The notes beneath the pieces were generated by a model. It saw only the letters and a list, made by a program, of their open reading frames with translations, was not told the DNA's origin and ran no database searches. A stretch of DNA of 64,000 bases from an uncultured Candidatus Saccharibacteria bacterium. GTDB taxonomy: Bacteria > Patescibacteriota > Minisyncoccia > Phycocordibacterales > Phycocordibacteraceae. The stretch covers positions 53,071-117,070 of the forward strand of contig CAYNNZ010000001.1 in assembly GCA_964398815.1 (NCBI GenBank), written 5' to 3'. Position 1 is the stretch's first letter; each line of letters starts with the position of its first letter. The position numbers and the translations under genes were made by a program. Below are positions 375 through 47,392 of the stretch, in pieces.

Positions 375-390
375 TTGCTACTATATAGAC

Positions 391-5629: not shown

Positions 5630-5737
5630 TGAGTGTCCTTTCGAGACAGAGTGATTGGATGTGCGTTAAATATCGCATATTTACACGTTTTGTCAAGTAC
5701 CCCAAAGCGAGGCTTTATGCGGTGGTATCATGCCTCC

Positions 5738-14919: not shown

Positions 14920-15095
14920 GTGTGAAGAGTATACCCAGATTTGAGGGAAAGCACACAAGTAAGCGTTTTCTTGCTCGCCAGGTGTCTACCTGTTATTATC
15001 CTGTGGACAACGTTGGTCCGAAGCGGTGTCTGCTTCCTGCCCCCAGGAGCTCCCTAGGGAGGGTGAATTACCCAACCGGACAACTATTACACCAT

Positions 15096-15245
15096 ATGCC
15101 TAAGCGAACCTATCAACCGAAGAAGCGGAAGCGCGCGACCACCCATGGTTTTCGCGCTCGTTCCGCTACCCCAGCGGGAAAAAAGGTCCTCACGCGCCGT
15201 CGCCGCAAGGGTCGTGCCACCCTCTCCGTTTCCTCGGAGAAATAA
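15096..15245 (+). CDS. rpmH: 50S ribosomal protein L34
   Basis: [46 protein letters not shown] is the L34 signature. Confidence 0.85.
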
Positions 15246-15249
15246 CGTC

Positions 15250-15567
15250 ATGTTACCCCGCGGCTTGCGTCTCACTCGGGACCAGTTTCCGCGCGTAGCA
15301 CAAGGAAAACGCGCCATCTCGGCGCATTTTTCCGTTTCATTCGCTGCCTCTGAGACTGGGCGCGCGGCCGCCGTAGTGTCAAAAAAGGTAGCAAAACGCT
15401 CAGTAGATCGGCATACTTTGAAGCGCCGCATGCTTGCCGCCAGCCTCCCCTTCCTTGCGGACGGCAGGGCATTTGTCGTGTATGCGCGTGCCGGCAGTCT
15501 CAGCCTGTCCTCTTCCGCGCTTCGCACGGAGCTTAGTTCGCTTCTCAAGCAACTGCCGAAGGTATAA
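15250..15567 (+). CDS. rnpA: ribonuclease P protein component
   Basis: It follows rpmH in the canonical arrangement. The ATG at 15250 (MLPRGLRLTRDQFPRV...) gives a 105-aa basic protein. The longer ORF-track start at 15145 overlaps rpmH out of frame. Confidence 0.7.
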   Translation: MLPRGLRLTRDQFPRVAQGKRAISAHFSVSFAASETGRAAAVVSKKVAKRSVDRHTLKRRMLAASLPFLADGRAFVVYARAGSLSLSSSALRTELSSLLKQLPKV

Positions 15568-15578
15568 GCTACACCGAT

Positions 15579-16313
15579 ATGGGAGATTTTTTCCACACCA
15601 TCCTCTACGTTCCGCTCTATAACCTTCTGGTGTTTCTCGTGGGAGTCATCCCGGGTGGAGACATCGGGGTTGCGGTTATCCTCGCAACCATAATCGTTCG
15701 CCTCCTTTTGTGGCCGCTTTCCATGAGCGCCGCGAAGACGCAGAAGGCAATGAAAACCATGCAGCCCGAAATGAAGGAGGTGCGCGAGAAGTACAAGAAC
15801 AATCAAGAGCTCCAGATGAAGGAAATGATGGCGCTCTACAAAAAATACGATGTCCATCCGTTCGCGAGCCTGTTGCCAGTATTCATACAACTCCCAATAG
15901 TCATCGGTCTCTACTGGGTGTTTCGTACCGAATCGCTCCCTGGTATCGATCAGGCCGTGCTCTATCCGTTTGTCCATTCACCGCTTGCCGCTTCGGCACT
16001 GTTCCTAGGCCTTATTTCGGTGACCAGCCATAGTATTCCGCTCGCCGCAGTCGCCGCGCTCTCCCAGCTGGCGCAGGCGTGGTACGCCATTCCGGTCCCC
16101 CCTGCTTCAACTGAGGCGACGTCTGCGGGAGATGATTTCGCACGGGCTATGGCACTTCAGATGCGTTTCGTACTCCCGGTAGTCATTGCATTCGTCGCAT
16201 ACGCTTCTGGCGCTATCGCGCTCTATTTCATAACGACCAACCTCGTCTCTCTCCTTCAGGAGTTCATTGTTCGCAGAACGGGAAACCCCACCCCTACCCC
16301 GGCCGCTGCTTAG
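15579..16313 (+). CDS. yidC: membrane protein insertase YidC (short form)
   Basis: Conserved YidC core (PLSMSAAKTQKAMKTMQPEMKEV...YKKYDVHPFASLLPVFIQLPIVIGLYWVF). The rpmH-rnpA-yidC arrangement supports the call. Confidence 0.85.
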   Translation: MGDFFHTILYVPLYNLLVFLVGVIPGGDIGVAVILATIIVRLLLWPLSMSAAKTQKAMKTMQPEMKEVREKYKNNQELQMKEMMALYKKYDVHPFASLLPVFIQLPIVIGLYWVFRTESLPGIDQAVLYPFVHSPLAASALFLGLISVTSHSIPLAAVAALSQLAQAWYAIPVPPASTEATSAGDDFARAMALQMRFVLPVVIAFVAYASGAIALYFITTNLVSLLQEFIVRRTGNPTPTPAAA

Positions 16314-17551
16314 AGATCGTACGCATAAAGCGCACCCGTATTCTTGTCTCTAAAGATAAGAACATCAGCAGTTCGATCGAGAGACAGTGCGGTCATATCG
16401 AGATCAGTGTTCGCTGCCTGCTTTGGGTCAATCACGAGCGACGCCACACGATCAGCGAGACCGATGCGCCACAAACGGTCTGAGAAATGAGTGACACCCT
16501 GATACCAATCATCAGGCTGGCTTCCGGTAAGAGTCGTGGGGACGCCGCAGTAAATGGACTGACTGTCGGGAGTCCACGCGCACTTATCAGGGAACGTAGC
16601 AAGCGGCAGGCGCGTTGCTACATGCGTCGTAAGGTCGAGGACTGCCAACGCCACCTTTCCTTGGTCAAGATAACTATAGAGAAGTGAATTCCCTGAGGGG
16701 CTTGGGAGCGTTGTCAGCGATTGGAGTGGTCCGAGCAAGCGAGTAAAGGAGCCAGATTTCGAGTCGACCAGGAAGGCGTATCCATCGCCATGCGCCGAGG
16801 CTTTTGTGGTTGCCACGAAATCAGCTCCAGCAAATGCGAGACGAATGGAAGAAAGCGGAGAGGTGAACAGTGTTCGTACACCGTTACCTGAAGGTGTTGA
16901 AATGGTCGCGGAGGAGCCGTCTCTCGTTGAGAGAAGGGTAACGAGAGTGCTGGTGCCGCGCACGAGCACTTGCTCGAGCCCACTCTCAAGGAAATAGCCA
17001 CCCTCCCCTACTGCTGGGAGCGCGTAGGTGCTTACGCGCTCTCCACCAGTCGTGCGCTCGAGGAAGCGCACAAACGCTTCCGAACCATCAGACAGCCACA
17101 CTGCTTCCTGAATACCCGGCAGTGTTTTATTCGAGAGACGCGTCAGGGTTCGTCCGTGCGCTTGGTATCCGTAGATATTTCCACTCTCGCGTTCGACATA
17201 CTCGATGCGCACATCTGGTTCGTATGCGGCGATAGGAGTGCCAGAAGCGGTCGAGGTGGCTGGGGTGAGGCCGGGCACATAGGTCGCCACACTCCCTACC
17301 GCTACAGGTCGGTCGCTAATGCGCACGAGTCTTGGCGCAATTTCAGTACCCGCTCCCGGAAGCGGTACACCCAATTCCTGAGTACTAATGTTCGTCGGAG
17401 TCTCGGTTACACCGGCAGTGTTCGAGTCAGGGAATGTGGCACCATTTCCCCCAGAAAGTGCGGGCCCCTTATTGAAGAACAGGAAATACGCACCCACTCC
17501 TATCAGAATGAGGAGGACGACTGCAGCGATGATAAGGAGTGTTCGTTTCAT
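16310..17551 (-). CDS. membrane-anchored hypothetical protein, predicted beta-propeller-like (last gene of the T4SS-like operon)
   Basis: N-terminal TM helix (MKRTLLIIAAVVLLILIGVGAYFLFF) and a repetitive beta-rich sequence. No recognisable catalytic motif. Its stop overlaps the yidC stop convergently. Confidence 0.5.
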   Translation of the reverse strand: MKRTLLIIAAVVLLILIGVGAYFLFFNKGPALSGGNGATFPDSNTAGVTETPTNISTQELGVPLPGAGTEIAPRLVRISDRPVAVGSVATYVPGLTPATSTASGTPIAAYEPDVRIEYVERESGNIYGYQAHGRTLTRLSNKTLPGIQEAVWLSDGSEAFVRFLERTTGGERVSTYALPAVGEGGYFLESGLEQVLVRGTSTLVTLLSTRDGSSATISTPSGNGVRTLFTSPLSSIRLAFAGADFVATTKASAHGDGYAFLVDSKSGSFTRLLGPLQSLTTLPSPSGNSLLYSYLDQGKVALAVLDLTTHVATRLPLATFPDKCAWTPDSQSIYCGVPTTLTGSQPDDWYQGVTHFSDRLWRIGLADRVASLVIDPKQAANTDLDMTALSLDRTADVLIFRDKNTGALYAYDL

Positions 17552-17553
17552 AG

Positions 17554-18522
17554 CTAATTACACATTGGCAAGTCTTTCACTGCATTCCATGCGGCTGCCG
17601 GGGTATGAGGATATGAACTATCGCAGGCTCGATTGAGTGCATACCCAGCTCGACTCGAGTTTACATTCATGTCAGCGGTACACGCAGCAAGGGTGGGAAA
17701 GTTGCGAGAAGTACTGTCCAGCCTGCAGTCGGCGCCAGTATCGTAGTTTATGTCCCGAGTACTTACGGTGTAATTGAATGTGCCAGTCCCTGCGTTCTGT
17801 GCAGCGACAGCTTGCTGTGCTGCGTTTGCGGCATTCACCGAATCGACTGCGCAACACGTTGCTCCGGCCGCCATTCCGCTGCAGCATTGAGCAGGAATTT
17901 CAGCATAGGTAGGTCCAAGTCGCTGCGCGCACGTCTGGTTCGTAGCGAGTGTCACCGCTTGTTTCTGTGGGCTTGTTTGGCAGATGCGCGCCGCTGCCGC
18001 TTCCGGTGTGTTGCCGGTGTACGCATCACTCGTGTTTTGTGAGTTCTGAATGACCTGTATTTCCGTCTGTAAATCCCTTGCGTTTATATCGATACGAAGG
18101 ATTGCCGGATTAATGATGCTAAACACGATGTACGGTGCGAGGACCAATATAAGTCCGACGATAGAGAGTGTTATGAGATTTCTCGCATCTTTCTTTTCAG
18201 TGACACTGTCGCCGCCCATGTACATGACACCGGCACGCATAAGCTGAAGCACGGCAAGCACCGCTGCCGCACCGATGCAGAGTTTGTAGAGTGTGGATAG
18301 GAATGTGGCGAGCGACGCCTGCGTCTGCACGTCTTGGAGCCCTGGCAAGGATGGGAGAAGAGGAACAAAATTCTGGGGTGTTTGGGACTGTGCGCTTGCA
18401 GGTGCTGCTCCTGCGGCTGTTGTAGGGGCGGCCGCTGGAGTTGCGGCAGGTTCAGCAAATACAAGCATGGGAGAAAGAGCGAGTACCGCAGTCAGCGCGA
18501 ACATAGCAAGGAAGCGTTTCAT
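17554..18522 (-). CDS. secreted hypothetical protein with two hydrophobic helices and a Cys-rich C-terminal domain (possible pilin/adhesin of the T4SS-like system)
   Basis: Signal peptide MKRFLAMFALTAVLALSPMLVFA. Hydrophobic hairpin (LATFLSTLYKLCIGAAAVLAVLQL...LITLSIVGLILVLAPYIVFSIINPAILRI) reminiscent of VirB2/TrbC topology. About 10 Cys in the last 130 aa. Confidence 0.45.
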   Translation of the reverse strand: MKRFLAMFALTAVLALSPMLVFAEPAATPAAAPTTAAGAAPASAQSQTPQNFVPLLPSLPGLQDVQTQASLATFLSTLYKLCIGAAAVLAVLQLMRAGVMYMGGDSVTEKKDARNLITLSIVGLILVLAPYIVFSIINPAILRIDINARDLQTEIQVIQNSQNTSDAYTGNTPEAAAARICQTSPQKQAVTLATNQTCAQRLGPTYAEIPAQCCSGMAAGATCCAVDSVNAANAAQQAVAAQNAGTGTFNYTVSTRDINYDTGADCRLDSTSRNFPTLAACTADMNVNSSRAGYALNRACDSSYPHTPAAAWNAVKDLPMCN

Positions 18523-18523
18523 A

Positions 18524-19498
18524 CTAGAAGCCGAATATATTAAAGGTCTTATTCGCACCGAACGCGATAGGTATCTGCATCGAAATATTCTGGTGCGTAT
18601 CACTTTGGCTGGCGGTGAGTGCGAGAATCGCATTCCCCTTCCCGGTGCCGGTCGTGCGTACGGTCACATCCTGATCGTTACTTGCCGACTGACCGCTCAC
18701 CGTCCAGGCAAGCGAAGGATTCTTTCCGAAGAAGTACCCGACAGCCCGGAACGCATCCTCCTGCGCGGTCATTGCGTATGTTCCCGATATGGCGTGGTCG
18801 AAATCAGGGCCCATGAGCGCGTCATTGTGGTAGATGCGCGCAACGGGATCGACTGGCGATACAGTCGTCGCAGACTGCGCAATAATGGTGGAGTCGGCGT
18901 TCGAGACGGTCACGGAAATCTGAGCATCGCGATACCGCATTGGGGCTGTGGCTATAAGTACGGAACGGCCTATCCCAGACTCAGCAGTAAGTATTCGGTC
19001 ACCCACCTTCCACGTATACACGAGCGCGCTCGCTGGAATACGAGCCGTTGGAGCGCTACGTAAGTCGGGTATAGCGATTATGCGCACCCTGCCCGTAACC
19101 GCAGTGAGCGAAGCGCCAGGATAGAGCGGATGGGTTGTAGATACGGGTTCTGAAATGAGCGCCACGTCAGCTGGGCGAAGAATGAGTTGCTTGGTGTACG
19201 TTTTTCCGTCCACCACCGCGGAAACGGAGATGGTCGTCCTTCCGCCCGGCCCCGCGACTGTTACCGGGATGCTCTGTGCGCCACTCCCCTTCACCACCAC
19301 CTTACCGTCGACCGAAACCGTCACGACGCTTCTGATAAGGTCGATACTCGAACTATCGGGCGTGACTGTAATGGTCTGATAGGGGCGCGGGTCCGTCGGA
19401 GAGATGACGATATTTACGTCTCCGTTCGAGAACTGGGCATGCACAGGCAAAGCAGTGAGGAGAAAAAGGACCGGTAAGAGAAATACGTACCGCTTCAT
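18524..19498 (-). CDS. secreted hypothetical protein (T4SS-like operon)
   Basis: Signal peptide MKRYVFLLPVLFLLTALPVHA. Repetitive Thr/Val-rich sequence, likely Ig-like beta domains. Tightly packed in the operon. Confidence 0.5.
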   Translation of the reverse strand: MKRYVFLLPVLFLLTALPVHAQFSNGDVNIVISPTDPRPYQTITVTPDSSSIDLIRSVVTVSVDGKVVVKGSGAQSIPVTVAGPGGRTTISVSAVVDGKTYTKQLILRPADVALISEPVSTTHPLYPGASLTAVTGRVRIIAIPDLRSAPTARIPASALVYTWKVGDRILTAESGIGRSVLIATAPMRYRDAQISVTVSNADSTIIAQSATTVSPVDPVARIYHNDALMGPDFDHAISGTYAMTAQEDAFRAVGYFFGKNPSLAWTVSGQSASNDQDVTVRTTGTGKGNAILALTASQSDTHQNISMQIPIAFGANKTFNIFGF

Positions 19499-19546
19499 TA
19501 CTGTGTAGTATACCGCCTCGAACTCTCCGAAAAACCACCCCTGGGG

Positions 19547-20500
19547 CTATTTCGCGATGTATTTCATGATGCCCGCCTCGTTCATCTGATCGAATGCGTA
19601 ATTAATGAGCTTCACCACCTTCGTCTCGCGGTAATGGGTCATAAGCACGAGGATGGTGGTCGCGGGTATTATTTTCCCGAATGGAATAATTTCGACAATC
19701 ACCTCGAAGAGGAAGCGCTTCCAGAACCACGTAATGATGAACTTCTTCCACCACCAACCCCCCATTTTATTGAATGACCAGACCGTAATAACGAGGTTTA
19801 TGAATACCGCGAGTATCGAAGTGATAATTACCCCAACGAGAGTGAAGTCAGCGAAGTCGATAGCATCCTTCAAAACCGCGAAGGAGACCATAATTATCGG
19901 AAAGTGTGGGAGCGGAGGGTTTTCCTCAACGGCTTTTTTTAATGTCTCCTCGTCAAATGACTCGCCCTGCTTATGAAACTCTTCGTCGATGGTGTCGAAT
20001 GTCTTGCGAACTGCTCCTCCAATGATATGTAGTGCCTGTTCATTTGAAGTAATGGTGTGACCTGCGAGTGGGTCAGTTCCTAAATTCCGCGACTCCGGGT
20101 CCTGTTGCGTTTTCTTCTGGCTCTGGGTTGGTGCACTACGCAGACGTTCGCGAGAAGCGCGCAAATCAACCACATTGTCCGCCTGTCTCGACGCTGACCG
20201 TGAGCCTACAGTCGCGGCGCGCTCAGCTGCCTGTTTTTCCTCCATGCGCCCAGCCACTTTGCCGGCGGCAAGTCCGGCTTTTTCAACTTCACCCACTCCA
20301 GACAGGTCGAGTGCGAGATTTCCTGCACCGAGCGCTGCTCTGCCGAGGCGTTCCCTGCCCGTAAGTGCGCGGCCGTCTAGGGTCCTGCCGCGAATGCCCT
20401 CAGCGATTTGTTTGCCACCTCCGACGAACGGCACAAGGTCAGCGCCCTCGCTCACCGCTTTTGGAACTTCTCCTTGCGGCTGTCGTGCGGGCTCAGCCAT
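19547..20500 (-). CDS. hypothetical membrane protein (T4SS-like operon)
   Basis: Ala/Gly/Arg-rich N-terminal region. The C-terminal third has TM helices and a Trp-rich segment (FNKMGGWWWKKFIITWFWKRF). The true start is uncertain. Confidence 0.45.
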   Translation of the reverse strand: MAEPARQPQGEVPKAVSEGADLVPFVGGGKQIAEGIRGRTLDGRALTGRERLGRAALGAGNLALDLSGVGEVEKAGLAAGKVAGRMEEKQAAERAATVGSRSASRQADNVVDLRASRERLRSAPTQSQKKTQQDPESRNLGTDPLAGHTITSNEQALHIIGGAVRKTFDTIDEEFHKQGESFDEETLKKAVEENPPLPHFPIIMVSFAVLKDAIDFADFTLVGVIITSILAVFINLVITVWSFNKMGGWWWKKFIITWFWKRFLFEVIVEIIPFGKIIPATTILVLMTHYRETKVVKLINYAFDQMNEAGIMKYIAK

Positions 20501-20503
20501 AGG

Positions 20504-22330
20504 CTAGGAGGCACCCGCAGTGTCACTCAATCGGTCCTTCTCGCGCTTTATCGCGAGAAGTTGAGATGGGTCGGAGGTAATAATCTGGTCCTCGGTGTAG
20601 GACGCAACGATTTTAATAGCGACATGCTTGAGACCAGCAAAGAAGAGTCCCTCACCTACTCCCGACTCGAGCAACAAGTATTTCTCCTGCTCAGTGAGAT
20701 TAAACGTGTCTTTAAGTACGTCGATGGTAGTTGGTGATTGCTTCAAGAGAAGCTGAATAGAAGAGTTCGTAAGAATAGGACGGCCATAAGGTGACTTCAA
20801 GAAGTCTTCAACGTCCTGTGTGATGGTGGCAAGCCCGAGGAAGTATTTGCGTCCGCGTTTTGCAAGCGAATAGAGGAAGGATGCGGTGTCTTCGCTCTTC
20901 ATCATCCACCATGCCTCGTCGATGACGAGCAAGCGTTTTTTGAGCTCGTGTCGCACCGCATTCCATATGTAATGCGTGATGATATACATCGCCACCGGCT
21001 TGAGTTCGTCCTCCATGTCGCGTACGGAAAAGACAATGAATTGCTTATCTATATCAATGTTCGTGGGTCGATTGATGAATCCGGCCCACGTGCCGTGGGT
21101 GTATTTAGAAAGACGCTGCAGGAGCGATTCGCTTCCCTCCATGCCACCGAGCACCTGTTCGAAGTCCGAGAGGAGCGGTGGTTCCATGCCGGTGAAATCA
21201 CGATCACCCGTAATGTCTTTGAGCGCATAGGTTTCGGTGACGGCGCGGTCGATGATTGCGTCCTCTTCCGGCGATAGGCCGCCAAGCATAATACGGAAGA
21301 GCCCGACGAGATTAATGATGTTACTGCGCAGAATATCGCCCGGCTCCTCGTCCTCCTTCACTGGCGGCAAATCGAATGGATTGATGTGGTGCTCGCTCGA
21401 AAGTGAGATGTTGAAGGTACGTCCCCCAGTCGCGTTCGCGAGATATTCGTACTCCTGCTCTGGATCGATGACGATGACGTCCGTGTCGAACATCAATGAA
21501 CGCAGAATTTCCAACTTAACCGCATAGGATTTACCGGAACCTGACTTTGCGAAGACGACCGAGTTGTAGTTCTCGAGCGAGAAACGGTCGAAAAGAATGA
21601 GTGAGGCGTTGTGGCGGTTTATGCCGAATAGAATGCCGCGGTCGCTCGTAAGGTCGAACGATACGAACGGAAAAAGCGAAGAAAGTGGCCCAGAATTAAG
21701 CTTGCTATTAACCGACAGTTCGTCGATAGCGAGCGGAAGTGTTGAGCGGAAGCCCTGTTCCTGCTGGAAGAGTGCCGGCTTGGTGTATACCAACTTTGCA
21801 TCGAGCAGTCCGCGCACTTCCCCTTCCGCCTTATCGAGCTCTTCTTTGGAGTTTGCGTAGAGCGTCAGGTAGAGCCCCACATCAAAGAGTTTTTCTTCTG
21901 CCTGCTGGAGCCGGTCACGCAGGTTTTCGAGGTCCTGATATGCGGTATCGAGAAGTGGGTCACGCACGAGGCCCTTGGTTTCCCTATCGGATATCTGACT
22001 CTGTACCTCAGCGACTTTGCGCTGGAAGTTGCGGAGTGCCTGCCCCGTCTCGATGGGGTGGATGAAAATAGCGATATCGAGTTGGCGCGCGAGGTTTACT
22101 ACCTGCATGAACCACCCATCCGTGAGGAAGCGCGGATAGGAAATGGTATAGAACGAGCGAGAGAATTTTTCCCCGAGCTCAATCTCCTTCGCGCTCACTT
22201 TGAGCGCTGCGGGCGCGATAGCATCCGCAAGGTCGAGCGCACCCTGCTTATAGATGTCGCTTGGAAGCACCGGAGTAATCTCCGGTAGTTCGTTTTTCTT
22301 CTTTCGTGCAAGGAAATCGAGTAATGCCAT
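20504..22330 (-). CDS. virB4: VirB4/TrbE/CagE-family type IV secretion ATPase (C-terminal 608 aa, including the ATPase domain)
   Basis: Walker A FAKSGSGKSY and Walker B LLVIDEAWWM. Overall VirB4 architecture. It lacks the N-terminal domain, which is encoded by the ORF immediately upstream. Confidence 0.85.
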   Translation of the reverse strand: MALLDFLARKKKNELPEITPVLPSDIYKQGALDLADAIAPAALKVSAKEIELGEKFSRSFYTISYPRFLTDGWFMQVVNLARQLDIAIFIHPIETGQALRNFQRKVAEVQSQISDRETKGLVRDPLLDTAYQDLENLRDRLQQAEEKLFDVGLYLTLYANSKEELDKAEGEVRGLLDAKLVYTKPALFQQEQGFRSTLPLAIDELSVNSKLNSGPLSSLFPFVSFDLTSDRGILFGINRHNASLILFDRFSLENYNSVVFAKSGSGKSYAVKLEILRSLMFDTDVIVIDPEQEYEYLANATGGRTFNISLSSEHHINPFDLPPVKEDEEPGDILRSNIINLVGLFRIMLGGLSPEEDAIIDRAVTETYALKDITGDRDFTGMEPPLLSDFEQVLGGMEGSESLLQRLSKYTHGTWAGFINRPTNIDIDKQFIVFSVRDMEDELKPVAMYIITHYIWNAVRHELKKRLLVIDEAWWMMKSEDTASFLYSLAKRGRKYFLGLATITQDVEDFLKSPYGRPILTNSSIQLLLKQSPTTIDVLKDTFNLTEQEKYLLLESGVGEGLFFAGLKHVAIKIVASYTEDQIITSDPSQLLAIKREKDRLSDTAGAS

Positions 22331-22335
22331 AGGTG

Positions 22336-22995
22336 TTATGCGGTTGGCTGTCCTACCCCTCCCCCGTCGAGACGGATGGGGCTTTCCATTTCGCCCACAT
22401 TAAAGGAGCGATACAGAAGTTCGATGAGTTCTTCTGTCGAAAGTGGCACAGCGCGAATGCCGGCAGCATTCAATCCCGCCGCAACAAGCGACATGCGCTG
22501 CTCCAACTGCACACGGTCCTCTTCGAATGTGTCCGCGCCGCCCTCTGGTCGCTGCGCAGGTCGTTTCCTTCCTGGAATTGGAAGGGAATCTGCAACCTTA
22601 AGGCCAAGCGCCGGAGTGTACGGAACCACGACGTAGAACAATTTCGACATGATTTCCGTGGTGTCCATGAATCCGCGGATGAACTGTATGTACTCGCGTA
22701 ACTGAATGCGCATCAATTCTGACTGCTGCGCGTCCAGTCGCTGTTCGAGAAGCGCGAGATAGGGACGAATGTCCATTTTGCGAGAGTGCACCACGATTTC
22801 AACAGAGAAATCGAGCGTATTGAGGAAGGACTGGAAGCCGCCAATGATTGCTGCCTGCTCATCTTCGGACTTGAGGGCGAAGTTCATGGAAGAGCACATC
22901 ATGATGCCGCGATACCCATCATCCTTGAGGATAACTACGCCGTTTCGTACCTCCTTTACCGGAACAAAGGCCTGGGTTGCTTTAGTGTCAGCCAT
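22336..22995 (-). CDS. virB4: VirB4 N-terminal domain encoded as a separate ORF (split gene or frameshift)
   Basis: VPVKEVRNGVVILKDDGYRGIMMCSSMNFALKSEDEQAAIIGGFQSFLNTLDFSVEIVVHSRKMD matches the conserved N-terminal region of Gram-positive-type VirB4 proteins. Only 5 nt separate it from the ATPase ORF. A C4TC5 run at 22357-22366 lies where both frames are open. Confidence 0.6.
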   Translation of the reverse strand: MADTKATQAFVPVKEVRNGVVILKDDGYRGIMMCSSMNFALKSEDEQAAIIGGFQSFLNTLDFSVEIVVHSRKMDIRPYLALLEQRLDAQQSELMRIQLREYIQFIRGFMDTTEIMSKLFYVVVPYTPALGLKVADSLPIPGRKRPAQRPEGGADTFEEDRVQLEQRMSLVAAGLNAAGIRAVPLSTEELIELLYRSFNVGEMESPIRLDGGGVGQPTA

Positions 22996-22996
22996 A

Positions 22997-23416
22997 TTAT
23001 GGGGCCGCTGGCGGCTGATTCTGGTCTTTTATATCGAGCGAAAGTGCCAAATCATGGAGCTTTCCCTGATTCATCGTAAGTTTCTGACGCACTTCTACGG
23101 CCTCTGGCGCTGGGGCGGCTGCCTCAGCCTTAGGCTGCTCTTTTTTCCAGAGATAGAGGCGGCCTTTCGTGTAGTAGTTAAATCCTGCTTCGAGCACTTC
23201 GATGAATGGCTTACTGTTTATTTTAAGAAACGCGAGAGAGCCCGCGAGCGCGGCGACGGGGGCAATGAGAATGAGCGCCAGAAACAGCGGCTTCACATAG
23301 AGAAAGAGAACAACGGACAATCCAACACCGCCACCAATATAGATGAATTGCTTCAGGGTAAACGGACCGAATATCCTATCTTCAACTTCGATGAATTGCG
23401 GTACCTGGTATTCCAT
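22997..23416 (-). CDS. PrgI/VirB3-like small membrane protein
   Basis: MEYQVPQFIEVEDRIFGPFTLKQFIYIGGGVGLSVVLFLYV plus a second TM helix. This matches the PrgI-family pattern usually encoded just upstream of virB4. Recalled family signature, not searched. Confidence 0.5.
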   Translation of the reverse strand: MEYQVPQFIEVEDRIFGPFTLKQFIYIGGGVGLSVVLFLYVKPLFLALILIAPVAALAGSLAFLKINSKPFIEVLEAGFNYYTKGRLYLWKKEQPKAEAAAPAPEAVEVRQKLTMNQGKLHDLALSLDIKDQNQPPAAP

Positions 23417-23446
23417 CACTACCAGTATACCCGACGTGCACACGCG

Positions 23447-24241
23447 CTATTCAACAGGTTCGCGATACGGGTCGACGCTATATGACTTCACTACGGGTGC
23501 ACCAGGAAGATTAGCTGGAGGTGGCGGCATAGGACGCACGGGAGCAATCTGCGGGGGTGGTGCAGGCGGCATAGGTGGAGGAGTAACCACCTGTGGAGGT
23601 GCAGCCGGCACTATCGGAGGGGTGGTGTGCGCGACTGAGATTGGCTCGGGCATGCGATGTTCCCGCACCGCCTCAATGTCGGTGGCCATGGTGCGCATCT
23701 GAGGGTGGTACTCCCCTGCTGGTATTGCTGGCGCCGGTGTAGGTGGAGGTGTTGGAACGACCGGTGCGGGCGGCGGTACAACGGAAACTGGTGCGGGTGC
23801 GGGAACTGCCGTAGGTGTAGGAGGAGTCAGTGGCTCTTCGGTGGCTACTGAGCTAATGGTAGTGGGCTGATAGGTTTCAACTAAATCACGTCGAGCCTCA
23901 ACTATTTCCTCTGCCGAATCTTCATCTTCCTCCTTAAAATTTCGCACCCGTTCACGAACAGGGATAAATATCTCCTCATTCAGGCTCGCCAAAATCTTCT
24001 TGGCAGTTTCGGAATCTATACCCGCCATTACTAGCTCGCCGAGCGTTTCAGCAGGGCTTTGTAAACCCATAAGCATGTAGGTTGCGGACTTCGAAAGCGT
24101 CCCACTTACATCGACATGAAGATTGTTGCGTGCAGCGATGCCGCCAAGCGTACGAGCCAAGTCATCCTCAAGAAGATACGCTCGAATCGGCTTCGGAAGC
24201 CCATTAAACGCGGCAGTATATTGCTGATTGGAGATTTCCAT
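23447..24241 (-). CDS. proline-rich hypothetical protein (T4SS-like operon)
   Basis: Structured N-terminal approximately 110 aa, followed by long PxP repeats (PPTPTAVPAPAPVSVVPPPAPVVPTPPPTPAP...). Native-like codon usage. Confidence 0.45.
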   Translation of the reverse strand: MEISNQQYTAAFNGLPKPIRAYLLEDDLARTLGGIAARNNLHVDVSGTLSKSATYMLMGLQSPAETLGELVMAGIDSETAKKILASLNEEIFIPVRERVRNFKEEDEDSAEEIVEARRDLVETYQPTTISSVATEEPLTPPTPTAVPAPAPVSVVPPPAPVVPTPPPTPAPAIPAGEYHPQMRTMATDIEAVREHRMPEPISVAHTTPPIVPAAPPQVVTPPPMPPAPPPQIAPVRPMPPPPANLPGAPVVKSYSVDPYREPVE

Positions 24242-24244
24242 ACT

Positions 24245-26959
24245 CTATTTATGCCAGTAGGTGTCGGCAACTCCGCTCTTTGCAAACCACGCATTGATGC
24301 TTGCGCTATTCGGATGTTTTGCGTCGCGGACTGCCGCTGCCACCTTACGGATATCTTCGTCATCGAATTTAGATTCACGCTGGAGTTCCGTCAGGTCAGC
24401 AACGGTAAATGAGGCAATAACGGTCGGGTGTAGGAGCGCGGTCGACGAGAGCTTAGCCTTATTTTTAGAATTGAGGGTGGTTGCGAAGCGCTTAATTTTT
24501 TCGTCCTCTTCAATAGCGGCTGCCATGTCTCCTGCAGCCAAGAGACGGTTATAGTCGCCAACTGCAGCCTCAACCTGACCCTTACGGCTGTGGGTGTAGA
24601 CCAGGTCTCGCTGATTTTTCGTAAGTGAACTATTTTTCCCAAGGAATTCATTTTGATCGCTAGAAATAATGCTTTCGCCATTCTTTGGATCTGTTTTCTT
24701 AAGCAGCTGCTCGAAGGTAACGGCGTCGTACTTAGCAAGCATCTCCAGTTCTTTGTTGTTGAGGCCACGAACTGTATCCTTACCAGCGCTGTACTCGCCA
24801 GCAACCGCCGCCTTAATACCGTCAAACCGCGCCCCCGAAATGTCCTTTTTCTGGACCGCGTTCAACTTGTCGCTCTCCATAAGCTTCTGGAACTGATCAG
24901 GCGATAGGTTGTTTATAAGAGCGCCAACTCCGTGCTGGATATCGTGCATTGCCGCAAGTTCGTCAGTGGAAAGACCTGCCAAGAATCGCTGGTTTTCAGG
25001 AGAAAGCTCAATAACTTTTCCTGTCTTCGGGTCGATCTTCCCTGCTTCGATGTCCTTAACCTGTTTCTTAAGGTCGATAAGTGCAACTTCCTTATTATAT
25101 TGAGCATCGTTCTTCTGCATCTTGTCGTGAACATCATGTATCTGGTGCTGCATATCGCCCAGCGTTGCGTGTTCAGCAGGACCACCCGCGACCTTACTGA
25201 TGGCGCCCATACCAGGTACGGCCCAGTTACGGATATCCGTATTCGCGTTCTCAATTGGCCGTAACATATTGTTCGTGACAAAACGTGTGATGCCTAAGTT
25301 CCCTACCGGAGACCTCTGAAGTGAGGTGCGAGCCACGCGTGCCGCACCATTCGTTACGGTATTCGATACGCGCGCCATGCCGCCGAAGACAACAGCACCC
25401 GCCATCTTTGTCGCCGCGGAAGAGCCGATTGCACTCATGTCCTTTGCGGTCTGGGTAGCTGCAAGCAAGAAGCCGACCATGAGGATGAACATTACAACAA
25501 TGCTGACATTACTAATGCCACCACTTGAAATTGCGCTTGCGAGCGTTGTGGTTTCCGAACCGAGCGACACGCGCATCCCGTCAACGAATTTCACTGCGAC
25601 GAGCACCATCAATATGTAGACCGGAGCGTAGAATGCCTGCTTCAAAAGCTGGTCCCACCACATCTTTGCGAACTTATGTAGTATCGGCACTGCCATTCCA
25701 GCGAACCCAATCGGAGACACTGCCATGAGGAAAGCGAGTGTGACTGCGCGAATTGAAAGCATGATGGTCGCAGCAAGCAGAACCATCGCGAGGGTTGCTA
25801 CGAATATGGTCAGCCCAATCATAATGAGCGCATTCTGAACATTTGAATCAGTAAAAACAGTTATGCCATCCGCAGGATTGAAGATGGTAGTGATGCCCGT
25901 AATCTGCATGATGGCCCCCGCGATGCCACTTTCTGTCGCGCACCTATATAGGTCTGAGGCGTCCGTACAGAGTCCGTTCCCAGCCTGGCGGTAGAGCGTG
26001 CTTCCGAGGGCGTTACTAGTATCTATGATTGCCTCCGCAGCGAAGAGGCTGAAGTTCATTAAAATCGCGAAGATAATGAGCGTCGGCAGTGCACGTTTGG
26101 CAGTAAATTCATTGCCGGGCAGGTTCAGGATGGTGCTGATACCCATGAAAATAAATCCGAAGAGAAGGAGGATGTTCCCTATGTCGCGAAGAATGCCCCA
26201 TGCGGCAAGCATGCCGGGGTTATTTCCGATGAGGTTTCCGAACTGAAAGACTGTGATGTAGATGGTCCAGTTGAAAATGATGCCCACGAGGCCGAGGAAG
26301 AACGCAGCAAGCCAGAGGAAGAAGAGCGCCACTCGCTTAACGACTTCGTAGACCAGGTCCCCGACACAGGGCCAGATGTTGCCCGGAATATTACATTGCG
26401 AGTGCGCCTCAGCGACCGCTGCGGCAGCGGTTTGAGTTTCACTAACTTGTGCTTGGGCCGCGGCCGCATTATTTACATCAGCCGAGCCTGAGGCGACAGG
26501 TGCGTTTGCGTTAGTAGTTACATTATTACCGGTCGTCGCTTGGCTCGTAGCGGCCGTTTGAGGCACGGTGCGTGGGTAGCCTGTAGTGGTGACGTTCGCT
26601 CGCGTACTGGTATTGAGAATTCTCTCGGTCTGTGTTGGCGGATTGGCATCAGAGTCGAAATTAACGTAAAGACTTGTTCCGTCAGTGTACTGAATTTCGC
26701 ACGTACCATTCTCTTCTCTTGCATTAGCCTCGGTTGATGACATCTGCACCGCTGTTCCCTCAGTTATGACGGTGTACCAGCAATGAATGCCATTACTTTT
26801 AGGAGTTTTCCCCGCAGGCGTTTGGAATGCTGCGAGCGCTGTGTGTGGTGTGAAGAATGAAACAACAAGAACGAGAGCCCCAAGAAGGAGTGTCTTCTTC
26901 ACCGGGTCTTTCCAGACAAACGTCATGGCCTTAGGTGCCGCACTGAGCTTGAGCAGCAA
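24245..26959 (-). CDS. VirB6/TrbL-like polytopic membrane protein with an approximately 480-aa C-terminal hydrophilic extension
   Basis: 904 aa. N-terminal secreted region, then a central block of at least 6 TM helices (FFLWLAAFFLGLVGIIF..., LLLFGFIFMGISTIL..., IMIGLTIFVATLAMVLLAATIML..., YAPVYILMVLVAVKF...). The C-terminal charged domain is long. The VirB6 assignment is by topology and context only. Confidence 0.55.
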   Translation of the reverse strand: MLLKLSAAPKAMTFVWKDPVKKTLLLGALVLVVSFFTPHTALAAFQTPAGKTPKSNGIHCWYTVITEGTAVQMSSTEANAREENGTCEIQYTDGTSLYVNFDSDANPPTQTERILNTSTRANVTTTGYPRTVPQTAATSQATTGNNVTTNANAPVASGSADVNNAAAAQAQVSETQTAAAAVAEAHSQCNIPGNIWPCVGDLVYEVVKRVALFFLWLAAFFLGLVGIIFNWTIYITVFQFGNLIGNNPGMLAAWGILRDIGNILLLFGFIFMGISTILNLPGNEFTAKRALPTLIIFAILMNFSLFAAEAIIDTSNALGSTLYRQAGNGLCTDASDLYRCATESGIAGAIMQITGITTIFNPADGITVFTDSNVQNALIMIGLTIFVATLAMVLLAATIMLSIRAVTLAFLMAVSPIGFAGMAVPILHKFAKMWWDQLLKQAFYAPVYILMVLVAVKFVDGMRVSLGSETTTLASAISSGGISNVSIVVMFILMVGFLLAATQTAKDMSAIGSSAATKMAGAVVFGGMARVSNTVTNGAARVARTSLQRSPVGNLGITRFVTNNMLRPIENANTDIRNWAVPGMGAISKVAGGPAEHATLGDMQHQIHDVHDKMQKNDAQYNKEVALIDLKKQVKDIEAGKIDPKTGKVIELSPENQRFLAGLSTDELAAMHDIQHGVGALINNLSPDQFQKLMESDKLNAVQKKDISGARFDGIKAAVAGEYSAGKDTVRGLNNKELEMLAKYDAVTFEQLLKKTDPKNGESIISSDQNEFLGKNSSLTKNQRDLVYTHSRKGQVEAAVGDYNRLLAAGDMAAAIEEDEKIKRFATTLNSKNKAKLSSTALLHPTVIASFTVADLTELQRESKFDDEDIRKVAAAVRDAKHPNSASINAWFAKSGVADTYWHK

Positions 26960-28442
26960 GCTGATTCATTTGCATGACGATGGTCGTGCCGTTTGTGGAC
27001 GTCGGTTGCGCTTGGGCTTCTGCGTAGAGCAAATCGCTTGGCGTTGGCCTCGTGTTTGCCCTGAGGAACGCGTCGTAACTAGTATTCGCCTGCCCTATTG
27101 CAGCTGCCTGAGCGCTCGCTGAAAGTGTGGCCGAATTGATTATTGTTGTTCGAATCGTATCGAGGGCTGCAATTTGTTGAGGTGTTGAACCAATCACCTG
27201 CGCTGCCTGAGCAAGTATTGGGTTGATTTGCGTGGAGATAATCGTGGCCGAATTCGGCGTGCAGGTAGAGTTCTGCAGCGCACCCTTTGCAGCCTGCGCC
27301 GCTGCGTTTATAGCCTGCCAGTTCGCGTAGTATGACTGAAGCGCGTTCAGTTTTTCACTAATAACTCCTGCGGACGTGCCGGCGAGTGCGATGCCGGAAG
27401 AGGCCTGTGTAGTGCTCTGAGTGTCCGGCTGGGTGAAATAATCTCGTCCGCCGGTCGCAGTGGAGCCGCGCGAAAGCCCGGCAAGCCCGGTTGCTCCGAC
27501 CACCTGCTGCATAAGCTGGCCCATGAGTGCGTTCACGAGTTCGTTGATTTCATCGGCTTGCACGAGTTCATCAGTCCCAAGCCCGAGCGAGTGGTTTATC
27601 TGCCCGGCAAGCACCGACCCCGGAGTTTCGATGTGGCTTGCGAGACAGGTCTGATGCGGTGTGAGATCAATGTTAACGGTGCCGTCAGACCCCGTCGTAG
27701 TATTACCGCTTCCTTCGAATGTGGTAGAAGTGAGGTCACATCTGCGCCACGAGAAGAACCCGCCACCATTCGCAACCTCCTCATGAAGTTGTGCGCCTAC
27801 CGCAGCGACGCGTCTATCTAATTCCGATTGGAGCAACTGCCGTGCGCCCAAATAATTATTCTGCGGATTAAGAACGGCTTCGGTCCATGCTCGAAGACCT
27901 CCCTGCCTAATGTCTCCTCGTGAAAATGCTGCTGGATCGTCGCTCACCCGATTCAAGGTGTACGGATTACGGATGAAGAAACTATCTGCGTTAGTTCCGA
28001 TGTAGTAAGCGCGGAGTACCGACTGAGCGATTTCATTTTGGAATGGGGACTCGATTTCAAGATTATTTTCCAGTTGATTAAAGAAGTCATTCGTCGCTTG
28101 ATCCGCTGCGTCTTGAATAGTGGCCCGTAGGTCAGTTGCGAAGGCAGGTGAGCCCTGGAAGCCAGTGTTTATCCAATTCACGGTGCTTCGGACAATGGAC
28201 TGTATGGCAATCCGGCCGATAGCCACCGCTGCACCGTCCAGCGTGAACTCCTTTATGTTGAGGGCGTTGCTGAGCGACTGAATCGCTGCGGTCGACACGG
28301 AAGTGATAATCGCTCGTGCGACTTGGATAGGACTATCGTAGTCAGCGGCCTGTACCGGTCTCGGGGCAATTGAGAAAACGATGGCAAAAGCCACCACCAG
28401 CGCAGCGATCTTCTTTACAAATGCGGGGCGGGAGGAGTTCAT
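26931..28442 (-). CDS. secreted hypothetical protein (T4SS-like operon)
   Basis: Signal peptide MNSSRPAFVKKIAALVVAFAIVFSIAPRPVQA. 503 aa, Ala/Gln/Thr-rich. No recognisable domain. Confidence 0.5.
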   Translation of the reverse strand: MNSSRPAFVKKIAALVVAFAIVFSIAPRPVQAADYDSPIQVARAIITSVSTAAIQSLSNALNIKEFTLDGAAVAIGRIAIQSIVRSTVNWINTGFQGSPAFATDLRATIQDAADQATNDFFNQLENNLEIESPFQNEIAQSVLRAYYIGTNADSFFIRNPYTLNRVSDDPAAFSRGDIRQGGLRAWTEAVLNPQNNYLGARQLLQSELDRRVAAVGAQLHEEVANGGGFFSWRRCDLTSTTFEGSGNTTTGSDGTVNIDLTPHQTCLASHIETPGSVLAGQINHSLGLGTDELVQADEINELVNALMGQLMQQVVGATGLAGLSRGSTATGGRDYFTQPDTQSTTQASSGIALAGTSAGVISEKLNALQSYYANWQAINAAAQAAKGALQNSTCTPNSATIISTQINPILAQAAQVIGSTPQQIAALDTIRTTIINSATLSASAQAAAIGQANTSYDAFLRANTRPTPSDLLYAEAQAQPTSTNGTTIVMQMNQLAAQAQCGT

Positions 28443-29449
28443 GGTGATTTAGAAGCGGCGGTCGAATCGCGCGCGTATATAAGGGTGCCGAAGAAGTGCG
28501 ACCCAGGTTCCCCTTTGAATATTTCTACCTGTTCAGCTGCGTATACGCCGTAAAGTGTGACGAGTGATTGGGTGAATGCGTCCGCCTGATCGCCGTAATT
28601 TTCGATACCTATCATGCTGCGCACCGGGTCACTCTCAAGCACTGAAAGATCCGTGAGTGTTCCGGAAAGCAGCATGAGAGAGTTTGCAAGCGCGAGGTGC
28701 GCGGTTGCTGCTTCTTTCGGTACAGAAATCTTCATCAGGTCACGCGCAATGGCTGCGTACGCAACACCGTCCTGCCCAAGGCGCTTGAGAGCAGCGGCGT
28801 CTGAGTGTTGGGTACCTGCAACGAGGTCATCGAGCATGTCGCTTCCTGCCGGAGCAGGGTGCGCGAGGAATGCTGTTTGTGCATCCACGGCATACGTGCG
28901 AAGCGCGTCAGGACCTGTACCCTCAACATGTACTTGACCCTGATTGAATGCGTTCGCAACCTGATGTGCTGCACGCAGCTGCCCCACTGCCGCGACCACG
29001 AACTGCTCTATTTCTGCCGGAGTAGGAGGCTTGGCGCCGCGCTTTGAGATGTAGTCTGCAAAAAGCGTGCGCGAGAATTCTTCAGTTATCGTCTGCGGCT
29101 TTGCGTCAACGCCTGGGACGTCCTTTGCGGATACGGTCGTGGTCGTGGCGTTCGCGAACTTCGGCGCAACGAGACCCTGCGCTACCGCTTCCCCATCGGT
29201 CGCGGTCTGATTCACAGAGTGCGGGTTGTTCGGGTCCGTGCCGTAGAGCGCCTCTTCCCAATCAGGAAGGCCATCATTATCGGAATCCTTTGCGGCGTAT
29301 GAAACCAGCAAGTCATGAGTGGATTCTGCGCCTGCAGTATTGAAGAATCGGAATGGAAGCGGACCTGAAATCATCACGGCGACTACAATCAAGCCGAGTG
29401 CCAGTACTCCTGATGCTGCTATAGCGATTGTGCGACGAGAATAAGCCAC
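28439..29449 (-). CDS. membrane-anchored hypothetical protein with a thrombospondin-type-3-like Ca-binding motif (first gene of the T4SS-like operon)
   Basis: N-terminal TM helix. Motif DSDNDGLPDWEEALYGTDPNNP. Its start overlaps the previous gene by 4 nt (ATGA). Confidence 0.5.
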   Translation of the reverse strand: MAYSRRTIAIAASGVLALGLIVVAVMISGPLPFRFFNTAGAESTHDLLVSYAAKDSDNDGLPDWEEALYGTDPNNPHSVNQTATDGEAVAQGLVAPKFANATTTTVSAKDVPGVDAKPQTITEEFSRTLFADYISKRGAKPPTPAEIEQFVVAAVGQLRAAHQVANAFNQGQVHVEGTGPDALRTYAVDAQTAFLAHPAPAGSDMLDDLVAGTQHSDAAALKRLGQDGVAYAAIARDLMKISVPKEAATAHLALANSLMLLSGTLTDLSVLESDPVRSMIGIENYGDQADAFTQSLVTLYGVYAAEQVEIFKGEPGSHFFGTLIYARDSTAASKSP

Positions 29450-45190: not shown

Positions 45191-45262
45191 GCTCCTGTGG
45201 TGAAATGGATATCACAACTGTCTTCGGAACAGTCGTTCCAGGTTCGAGTCCTGGCGGGAGCA
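45191..45262 (+). tRNA. tRNA-Arg (anticodon UCG)
   Basis: Acceptor GCTCCTG/CGGGAGC with one U-G wobble. D-arm GTGA-AATGGATA-TCAC. Anticodon stem ACTGT/ACAGT with loop CTTCGGA. T-arm CCAGG-TTCGAGT-CCTGG. Discriminator A, no encoded CCA. It ends 1 nt before the lysA ATG. Confidence 0.75.
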
Positions 45263-45263
45263 C

Positions 45264-46433: not shown

Positions 46434-46471
46434 CGAACCGCGCGGGCTTCATGATATGATGCCTGCCACAT

Positions 46472-46583: not shown

Positions 46584-46695
46584 CCGCTGAGTGCGGCCAA
46601 AACAGGACGCGGGACGTCCTGTGTGGAGAATCGGAGGCCGGAAGCGCGACGGCGCTGAGGCGGGGTCGACCAAAATTCCAGCAGGAATTTATGGG

Positions 46696-47389: not shown

Positions 47390-47392
47390 CAC

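Follow-up and report, generated by a model that had tools for sequence, protein, structure and literature searches.

The 64,000-nt stretch analysed here, called the window below (positions 53,071 to 117,070 of contig CAYNNZ010000001.1, assembly GCA_964398815.1, deposited as an uncultured Candidatus Saccharibacteria bacterium), carries eleven intact minus-strand open reading frames (ORFs). They run from 29449 down to 16310 and are labelled g11 to g01 in transcription order (Table 1). Together they encode a Patescibacteria type IV secretion system (T4SS) that is chromosomal, vertically inherited and without DNA-transfer genes in its vicinity. By analogy with characterised systems, this T4SS probably serves host contact and transport without a relaxase, through a pilus or stalk driven by VirB4. 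All eleven ORFs had been listed in a first-pass annotation of the window, which described a minimal VirB4/VirB3/VirB6 apparatus. In profile searches VirB4, its N-terminal domain and PrgI were recognised directly, and VirB6 through its orthologs and its fold. The word 'minimal' did not hold, as a VirB2-like pilin and a candidate TrbJ/VirB5-like protein are also present. PrgI/VirB3, the divided VirB4 and the extended VirB6/TrbL make up an energy and membrane core like that of Gram-positive conjugation systems (MPF_FATA-like), whereas the pilin and the TrbJ/VirB5-like protein are of kinds otherwise found mainly in Gram-negative ones. The other five genes encode lineage-specific envelope proteins.

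In a one-genome-per-species scan, at least 576 stretches encode this VirB4. The best 80 of these, with 73-90% identical VirB4 proteins, were analysed and all lie in metagenome-assembled genomes (MAGs) that are labelled as candidate phyla radiation (CPR) or unclassified.

The VirB4 motor

The g05 product contains the Walker A (KSGSGKSY) and Walker B (VIDEAW) motifs of the VirB4 ATPase that had been proposed. It matches Pfam P-loop_TraG at 1.1e-24, in addition to AAA_10, and passes the threshold of the NCBIfam family 'VirB4-like conjugal transfer ATPase, CD1110 family' (372 bits, cut-off 325), over profile positions 183-733 of 752 only. The best PDB match is the C-domain of Thermoanaerobacter VirB4 (4ag5, 6e-44), with R388 TrwK at 1.8e-5, and PrgJ of pCF10 is annotated under the same NCBIfam family name as g05. 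As the best structural match is a Firmicute VirB4 and the family name is shared with PrgJ, the motor is of the monoderm type.

The N-terminal domain of VirB4 is a separate ORF, as claimed before. Among the NCBIfam models, g06 aligns to the N-terminal parts of VirB4_plasma, the VirB4 model of mycoplasma integrative and conjugative elements (ICEs) (positions 102-233, 9e-9), and of the CD1110 model (positions 4-78, 2.6e-4), with a weak match to the TrsD model (0.014). No PDB sequence match was found for g06, and hhalign against single-sequence PrgJ gave nothing. The family has a mean column identity of 57%. Both ORFs were called at 78 loci, and at nearly all of them, with two outliers, the g06-type ORF is separate and lies 1-12 nt upstream of virB4. 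Since the split is kept across these related loci, it is not a frameshift or a sequencing artefact. Directly upstream, the PrgI/VirB3-like g07 passes the Pfam PrgI threshold (PF12666; 3.3e-9, 37.6 bits, cut-off 27). Its hydrophobic stretch covers residues 30-76, and orthologs, starting MEYQVPQFIEVED, are found at 76 of the 80 loci.

The pilin and the VirB6 platform

The Cys-rich two-helix secreted protein that had been flagged as a possible pilin, g02, belongs to a family in which 29 of 33 orthologs match T4SS_pilin (best 3e-11) and 11 match TrbC/VirB2 (8.3e-7). It is built of a signal peptide, two transmembrane (TM) helices and a Cys-rich C-terminal extension of about 175 aa, with 12 Cys in the window ORF. 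The orthologs measure 131-408 aa, and the pilin core alone is conserved; their extensions range from none to about 250 residues and hold 0-16 Cys.

For g09, eight of 47 syntenic copies match Pfam TrbL/VirB6 (best 1.9e-7) and one matches TrbL_4, and precomputed database annotation assigns PF04610 or PF19590 to about 20 of its 120 best homologs. An AlphaFold2 model built from 65 sequences (pLDDT 82, pTM 0.55) begins with a helix that is either a signal or a TM segment. Next come a small beta domain (residues 42-107) and a disordered linker, then the polytopic helical membrane core (about 184-540) and, C-terminally, a domain that is all alpha (about 590-893). When this model was compared with 350,542 PDB chains using Foldseek, the three best matches were the TrwI/VirB6 chains of the R388 stalk, with a probability of 1.00, an E-value of only 0.04-0.07 and a TM-score of 0.42-0.45 on the target. 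Profile comparisons with hhalign were weak against the TrbL set (P 8e-4) and against pCF10 PrgH (P 1e-3, probability 22%), the latter in the same helical region as the TrbL-set match, and gave P 0.013 against R388 TrwI. Single-sequence templates were too weak in these comparisons, and small reference alignments improved the result for g10 and not for g09. PDB sequence-profile searches with the VirB6, TrsD-like and g10 families returned coiled-coil noise or nothing. The Pfam matches of the orthologs and the predicted fold support g09 as an 'extended VirB6', as a 2025 FEMS review uses the term (PMC12857230). The VirB6-like assignment of the first-pass annotation thus stands, whereas the C-terminal extension, put there at roughly 480 aa, is a hydrophilic region of about 400 aa after residue ~506 of the 904-aa form.

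A TrbJ/VirB5-like candidate

The g10 product has a signal peptide, and its gene lies directly upstream of VirB6, the position of virB5/trbJ in Gram-negative operons. All of its 56 homologs are unnamed. Several family members match Pfam DUF4141 at the mature N-terminus, with only one (P0042) above the threshold (35.2 bits, cut-off 30). In transposons of Bacteroides and on a plasmid of Paraburkholderia, DUF4141 proteins are encoded between traG/virB4 and traJ/virB6. We take the DUF4141 slot of the Bacteroides transposons to be that of CTnDOT TraI. According to Guglielmini et al., CTnDOT TraI is homologous to VirB5.

After signal peptide cleavage, many family members start with AQ-W-x-V-[IF]-D-P-x-N-L-x-x-N or [IL]-P-V-[TIV]-D. 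The mature start of R388 TrwJ is AQ/GIPVFDGT, and that of TrbJ proteins AQ/W[IVT]V[FI]DP[NST]N. A tblastn search with P0042 against 7.3 Gb of plasmids yielded 13 individually weak matches (E 0.2-8), of which ten fall on trbJ, two on DUF4141 genes and one on an unannotated ORF that lies, as read from translations, between TrbE-like and TrbL-like ORFs; nine of the 13 are on near-identical Bradyrhizobium plasmids, which leaves about five independent matches. Wherever the neighbourhood was inspected, the matched genes sit between virB4/trbE and trbL/virB6. In hhalign, the g10 family aligns to five TrbJ/VirB5 proteins with a probability of 85% and P 5.9e-6, over 27 columns only, and nothing was obtained against the single R388 TrwJ. 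Some orthologs carry C-terminal F5/8-type-C lectin or Ig-like domains. Based on the mature N-terminus, a TrbJ/VirB5-like nature of g10 is a supported lead that is not yet settled.

No VirB5/TrbJ-like subunit for the Patescibacteria T4SS clade is reported in the survey of Quinonero-Coronel et al. (2025, Microb Genom; PMC12102498), in the annotation table of Southlakia epibionticum or in other searchable literature. The locus adds no new class of T4SS, and the TrbJ/VirB5-like protein is possibly a part of this one that went unreported. More tentatively, and with doubt somewhat outweighing belief, Parcubacteria/Paceibacteria might set a Gram-negative-type VirB2-VirB5-VirB6 pilus or stalk on a Gram-positive-type VirB3/VirB4 base without an outer membrane, with the exposed pilin and VirB5-like subunits as host-range determinants. 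If the VirB5-like assignment is true, the case for a true conjugative-type pilus in monoderm cells becomes stronger, and the pilin tail and the C-terminus of g10 become candidates for host recognition.

Conservation and vertical inheritance

As illustrated by tblastn, dozens of genomes share the order uvrD-ksgA-g11-g10-g09-g08-g07-g06-g05-(g04)-g03-g02-g01, followed by yidC on the opposite strand and dnaA-dnaN. All eleven genes are thus conserved in order in related genomes, where conservation was to be checked, and the accessory proteins are not the ORFans they were taken for, being conserved and syntenic in dozens of species-level genomes. The relatives are mostly labelled Parcubacteria group, Candidatus Kaiserbacteria or Paceibacterota, with many co-assembly TPA bins labelled 'uncultured Candidatus Saccharibacteria' or just 'bacterium', and the closest locus (DnaA 92%) comes from a Parcubacteria MAG. 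The source genome is a Parcubacteria/Kaiserbacteria-like Patescibacterium and not a Saccharibacterium, and the Saccharibacteria label is taken as generic.

In the window, ksgA lies 98 nt upstream of the block, and dnaA and dnaN 1.4-4 kb downstream. The flanks are made of housekeeping genes, with ksgA, uvrD/pcrA, an M23-LysM peptidase and VanY on one side and yidC, dnaA, dnaN and PBP1 on the other. Other large ORFs of the window encode DNA polymerase I, RuvABC, PilB/PilC, NusA, ClpP, RNase Y and similar proteins, and the GC content is even (0.51-0.56). Across loci, VirB4 identity follows DnaA identity (Spearman 0.82) and is the higher of the two (median 75% vs 57%). Because it both tracks and exceeds DnaA identity, VirB4 behaves as a vertically inherited core gene under strong constraint. 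A recently acquired island or ICE was considered and rejected on account of synteny, composition and co-divergence with DnaA.

The components do not evolve at one pace. Compared with the closest genome, identity is 40% for the pilin, 46% for g10, 46% for VirB6 and 50% for g11, against 90% for VirB4 and 92% for DnaA. A slow motor, more conserved than DnaA across the loci, thus contrasts with fast surface parts. That the exposed parts evolve fastest and that the pilin extensions vary fits a role in host-surface recognition.

One sub-lineage with VirB4 about 83% identical (L013, L016, L017, L019, L021, L024, L027, L030 and others) departs from the common order in that g08-g11 are not beside PrgI. 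Upstream of PrgI, a membrane-protease-like ORF, SOD, RecJ, PGK and TIM are found there (L013:1-9400, read from translations), and the half from PrgI to g01 is still beside yidC-dnaA. As the VirB6 half is absent next to PrgI in these genomes, the two halves are separable, and the VirB6 half may sit elsewhere or be lost.

DNA-transfer genes and the conjugation question

No type IV coupling protein (T4CP; TraG/VirD4/TrwB-type), relaxase or VirB11 was found among the large ORFs of the window or among the genes called in about 4 kb to its left and about 10 kb to its right. The inspected span is thus about 78 kb (from about -4 kb to +74 kb), and the relaxase search was made by protein domains, with no search for oriT. 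This extends the earlier observation that VirD4, relaxase and VirB11 are missing from the window. Beyond it, contigs of the same genome encode Mur ligase and RuvA on the left, and TIM, PGK, RecJ and ComEC on the right. Two PF00437 ATPases of about 590 aa each were considered as VirB11 and rejected: both have MshEN domains, the second is followed by PilC, and they are PilB-like proteins of a type IV pilus (T4P). Directly after pilC comes the gene of a 578-aa CarboxypepD_reg/Ig-like protein. The genome thus encodes a T4P beside its T4SS, a combination that has been reported for Saccharibacteria.

The locus is unlikely to be a conjugative element, as had been concluded from the sequence alone; housekeeping flanks, a fixed position, even GC and co-divergence with DnaA now join the absence of transfer genes nearby. 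It could still supply mating-pair formation to a conjugative element, or to a system that mobilises the chromosome, whose T4CP and relaxase lie elsewhere in the genome, of which about 78 kb and no more were inspected. The VirB4 family of g05 is named for conjugative transfer, and according to PMC12102498, 2,918 Patescibacteria genomes carry VirD4-like genes, almost always remote from virB4, and 103 genomes carry 109 relaxase homologues. We consider this very improbable. These 103 genomes are among 3,035 surveyed, and the T4CP homolog of S. epibionticum is non-essential whereas its T4SS is essential (PMC12102498). Near the present locus there is no integrase, att-like boundary, relaxase or T4CP; the sole tyrosine recombinase is 12 kb off among housekeeping genes. 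The locus is moreover fixed beside dnaA in dozens of species and diverges with DnaA, in a window of uniform GC.

Other envelope proteins

The thrombospondin-type-3-like motif reported for this locus is found in g11, which matches Pfam TSP3_bac above threshold (1.6e-7, 31.5 bits, cut-off 25) at residues 55-76; TSP3 repeats bind calcium. Its N-terminal part holds a single hydrophobic segment (residues 5-36), and the C-terminal domain, some 230 aa long and helical by eye, matches no family. Syntenic orthologs are present at 31 of the 80 loci. The Pro-rich protein is g08, with 18.6% Pro, no hydrophobic or TM segment and no significant Pfam match. Its orthologs, at 26 of the 80 loci, occupy the same position, and the N-terminal part alone is conserved.

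The g03 product has a signal peptide and orthologs at 78 of the 80 loci. Among 66 orthologs, Pfam matches were obtained to BiPBP_C (27, weak), Cadherin-like (13, best 4.8e-7), PKD_6 (five, 2e-7) and Ig_3 (five), and judging from these sequence matches, g03 apparently consists of tandem Ig-like beta-sandwiches. The beta-propeller-like membrane protein of the first-pass annotation is g01. It is anchored in the membrane by one N-terminal TM segment (residues 1-30) and has orthologs at 66 of the 80 loci and two invariant Cys. The propeller is probable only: matches to propeller families are weak (TolB 0.049; PD40 in four and DPPIV_N in two of 49 orthologs), and a profile self-comparison indicates repeats offset by about 45 aa (P 4e-4 and 1e-3).

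By tblastn, g04 was matched at three loci only, but an iterative jackhmmer search connects it with the ORF at the corresponding position in 53 of 61 loci. The conserved core holds a near-invariant Asp (D212) and the motif E-x-IP-x(5)-P-x-x-T. Residues 213-244 and 267-287 are hydrophobic, and at its N-terminus the window copy carries some 190 aa of additional soluble sequence. Comparison by hhalign with PrgF and PrgG of pCF10 gave no similarity. A polymorphic-toxin-like reading was rejected, since the PT-TG match (E 0.005) is below threshold and lies in the N-terminal extension that most aligned orthologs lack, the conserved part being the membrane core. About 28 of 61 orthologs have a charged cytoplasmic tail that terminates in '-AA' (REAA, KAA, LAA, SYAA), often with AAND or AND within it, e.g. 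...AANDNSYEIPEEEQEAA (ortholog examples in Table 1). The SsrA/tmRNA degradation tag, AANDENYALAA in E. coli, resembles these tails. By this analogy, the '-AA' tails hint at regulated turnover of the ClpXP type. The window copy of g04 has no such tail and ends ...MKYIAK.

Operon layout and neighbouring genes

The tight packing claimed for the block, with gaps of 4 nt or less, is confirmed apart from 48 nt between g04 and g03 and 5 nt between the VirB4 pieces g06 and g05. Genes g11 and g10 overlap by 4 nt. The remaining gaps given are 4 nt (g10-g09, with the VirB6 start at M12), 3 nt (g09-g08), 1 nt (g07-g06), 3 nt (g05-g04), 1 nt (g03-g02, with the pilin start at M38) and 2 nt (g02-g01). Judging from orthologs and signal peptides, the true starts are likely M38 for the pilin, M12 for VirB6 and M10 for PrgI. 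A scan for promoter and terminator consensus sites between 15500 and 33000 gave counts not above those of shuffled sequence and is uninformative on operon boundaries, so that the operon structure is deduced from spacing and synteny. When the window was scanned for Rfam families and tRNAs, five tRNAs were all that was found, with nothing inside the T4SS locus.

Table 1. Features of the T4SS locus and its surroundings (window positions unless a locus is named)
Feature	Position	Strand	Description
g11	28439..29449	-	336 aa, membrane-anchored, one bacterial TSP3 repeat; first gene of the block
g10	26931..28442	-	503 aa, secreted, candidate TrbJ/VirB5-like minor pilin or tip adhesin
g09	24245..26926	-	893 aa (904 aa from upstream TTG at 26959), extended VirB6/TrbL
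g08	23447..24241	-	264 aa, N-terminal domain of ~110 aa and proline-rich tail
g07	22997..23443	-	148 aa (probably 139 aa from M10, 23416), PrgI/VirB3-like, two TM segments
g06	22336..22995	-	219 aa, TrsD-like, VirB4 N-terminal domain as a separate ORF
g05	20504..22330	-	608 aa, VirB4 ATPase, C-terminal two thirds, monoderm CD1110/PrgJ type
g04	19547..20500	-	317 aa, fast-evolving membrane protein directly downstream of virB4
g03	18524..19498	-	324 aa, secreted, apparently tandem Ig-like beta-sandwich domains
g02	17554..18522	-	322 aa from M38 (359 aa from first ATG, 18633), VirB2/TrbC-like pilin with Cys-rich extension
g01	16310..17551	-	413 aa, membrane-anchored, probable beta-propeller ectodomain; last gene of the block
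g04 ortholog	L013:11799-12428		slot between virB4 and g03 ortholog
g04 ortholog	L036:11799-12554		slot between virB4 and g03 ortholog
g04 ortholog	L006:11827-12282		slot between virB4 and g03 ortholog
LTD protein	187-1005	+	lamin-tail domain, left edge of the window
PF00437 ATPase	5633-7414	+	~590 aa, MshEN domains
ORF in dnaA-yidC gap	14922-15245	+	gap 14958-15579
296-aa ORF	15087-15977	-	overlaps yidC
yidC	15579-16313	+	convergent with g01
M23 peptidase	32488-33594	+	two LysM domains
VanY	33990-34865	+	D,D-carboxypeptidase
458-aa ORF	39089-40465	-	no Pfam match
Tyrosine recombinase	41526-42443		XerC/D-like
Exo_endo_phos nuclease	42462-43256		near tRNA cluster
tRNA cluster	45191-49515		Arg-TCG, Gly-GCC, Pro-TGG, Gly-TCC
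Exo_endo_phos nuclease	47393-48181		near tRNA cluster
PF00437 ATPase	57318-59078	+	~590 aa, MshEN domains
PilC	59080-60297	+	follows second PF00437 ATPase
CarboxypepD_reg/Ig-like protein	60343-62079	+	578 aa

An M23 peptidase and a VanY carboxypeptidase are encoded 3-5 kb upstream of the T4SS block, and L001, L002, L004 and L072 have the M23 gene in the same location. According to PMC12102498, VirB1-like matches with M23/LysM domains are associated with virB4 in Paceibacteria. By analogy, the two enzymes may act as wall-opening enzymes of the T4SS.

On the yidC side, a minus-strand ORF without a family match overlaps yidC and is probably spurious. The gap between dnaA and yidC is expected to hold rpmH and rnpA on the plus strand, in which case the region of the replication origin would be no more than about 2 kb away from the end of the T4SS operon. 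Further away, four tRNA genes are interleaved with single protein genes, among them two Exo_endo_phos nucleases and a trypsin-like protease, and the XerC/D-like recombinase lies just upstream. On a cursory look, this region gave no sign of an integrated element. The 458-aa ORF lies between a DUF975-like membrane protein and an NYN nuclease, and an LTD protein is encoded at the left edge.

Proposed function

The R388 stalk consists of a pentamer of VirB6 with a pentamer of VirB5 on top, and its pilus is proposed to start growing at the VirB6 base, with VirB4 levering VirB2 from the membrane and VirB5 at the tip (PMC9259494). Genes for these four roles are present here too. By this analogy, VirB6 would form the membrane platform with the VirB5-like protein on top, and VirB4, held by VirB3, would extract the pilin from the membrane and polymerise it under the VirB5-like cap. 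The growing short pilus or stalk would be pushed through the wall to the surface of the host cell and make contact through two variable parts, the Cys-rich tail of the pilin and the C-terminus of the VirB5-like protein. The machine could then move proteins or other macromolecules without a relaxase. No outer-membrane parts are present, which fits a monoderm envelope. A 2025 review calls the Patescibacteria T4SS the first one shown to be essential for the survival of its carrier, with substrate and direction as an open question (PMC10633639, PMC12857230).

Several points speak against such a pilus or stalk of the Patescibacteria type. The window copy of g02 stays below threshold for T4SS_pilin (20.6 bits, cut-off 26.6) and likewise for TrbC, the window copy of g09 has no Pfam or NCBIfam match of its own next to the modest E-values of its TrwI matches, and that of g10 shows the start motif in diverged form only, A/ADYDSPIQVARAI. 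The VirB5-like assignment draws on about 27-45 N-terminal residues and on gene order, with no detectable TrbJ/VirB5 similarity in the body of g10 and non-specific fold searches of its model. No VirB8-like or VirB1-like protein was recognised in the eleven-gene operon. The sub-lineage without the VirB6 half next to PrgI and the distant VirD4-like genes of other Patescibacteria, both mentioned above, fall on the same side, and the assignment to the Patescibacteria clade is made here from the VirB4 family profile and locus features, not from a VirB4 tree.

An import machine like H. pylori ComB or archaeal Ced, for the uptake of DNA, nucleotides or other host molecules, is in our view an unlikely alternative. 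ComB-type uptake systems are likewise without T4CP and relaxase, as is the vicinity of this locus. In addition, comEC lies just past the right end of the window, and g05 gives a partial match to the archaeal CedB model (1.4e-9). That match, however, covers about 70 residues of the P-loop region only, whereas the best full-length family is the conjugative CD1110 type, and the sequence is silent on the direction of transport. In S. epibionticum, deletion of comEC ended competence but not viability, while the T4SS is essential (PMC12857230), so that DNA uptake through ComEC is not the essential role of the T4SS. The reading as a pilus or stalk for host contact is preferred.

Comparison with known systems

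The likeness to the T4SS of episymbiotic bacteria, already suspected from the sequence, corresponds to a published Patescibacteria class (PMC10633639, PMC12102498, PMC12857230), which the 2025 FEMS review treats as a recognised new branch of the superfamily. In 3,035 Patescibacteria genomes, PMC12102498 describes a monophyletic VirB4 clade nested in MPF_FATA, with TrsD-like, PrgI/VirB3, VirB6 and VirB2-like genes near virB4, almost no relaxases, and a location often beside dnaA, dnaN, rnpA, ksgA and rpmH in Paceibacteria and Microgenomatia. The present locus likewise has VirB4, a separate TrsD-like ORF, PrgI/VirB3, VirB6 and a VirB2-like pilin at a dnaA/dnaN/ksgA site with no relaxase or T4CP nearby. 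The survey reports no VirB5/TrbJ homolog, whereas g10 here has a TrbJ-type N-terminus; nor does it describe the Ig-like, propeller-like, TSP3 and small membrane proteins or the Cys-rich pilin extension.

According to Wang et al. (2023, Cell; PMC10633639), an unusual Gram-positive-like T4SS, its pilins included, is essential for the epibiotic growth of S. epibionticum (Tn-seq) and has no recognisable coupling protein or relaxase; delivery of DNA or protein where the epibiont meets its host is the role they propose. The cluster of Southlakia epibionticum ML1 (SEML1_0006-0019) shares with the present one the order of VirB4, an unnamed protein and PrgI, a TrbL/VirB6 that ends in a long, helical, ARM-like domain, pilins of PF18895/PF04956 encoded within the cluster, and the absence of any coupling protein or relaxase that could be recognised. 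It differs in having six pilin genes and an NTF2-like (VirB8-like) protein, against one extended pilin and no recognised VirB8-like protein here. It also belongs to the class Saccharimonadia rather than to Parcubacteria/Paceibacteria, and essentiality was shown there by Tn-seq while genes alone are read here.

From the MPF_FATA systems (pCF10 Prg/Pcf, pGO1 Trs), the locus shares the NCBIfam family of PrgJ, a PrgI directly upstream and the absence of outer-membrane core components among the proteins found, and the separate TrsD-like N-domain is similar to that of pGO1. Unlike pCF10, it has no PcfC-type T4CP, relaxase, PrgK-type hydrolase, PrgL/VirB8 or PrgB adhesin, and shows no PrgF/PrgG similarity and only the weak PrgH match. 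In contrast to Gram-positive systems, which lack one, it has a VirB2-like pilin, and it is chromosomal and vertically inherited instead of being carried on a mobile element.

With the Gram-negative R388 Trw and IncP Trb systems, it has in common a trbJ/virB5-like gene followed by a trbL/virB6-like gene, as in trbE-trbJ-trbL, the signal peptide and AQ-W/I-x-V-x-D-P-x-N start of the g10 family, the TrwI-like VirB6 fold and the two-helix pilin core. Unlike them, it has no VirB7, VirB8, VirB9, VirB10 or VirB11 and a monoderm-type ATPase core; g10 is twice the length of TrbJ and alike at the N-terminus alone, VirB6 is enlarged by domains at both ends, and the pilin by a large extension at its C-terminus.

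Since the locus matches the description of the survey point by point, it is a further example of the published class, and a clean and complete one from Parcubacteria/Paceibacteria, a group with few co-cultures, with its 11-gene order kept across dozens of genomes.

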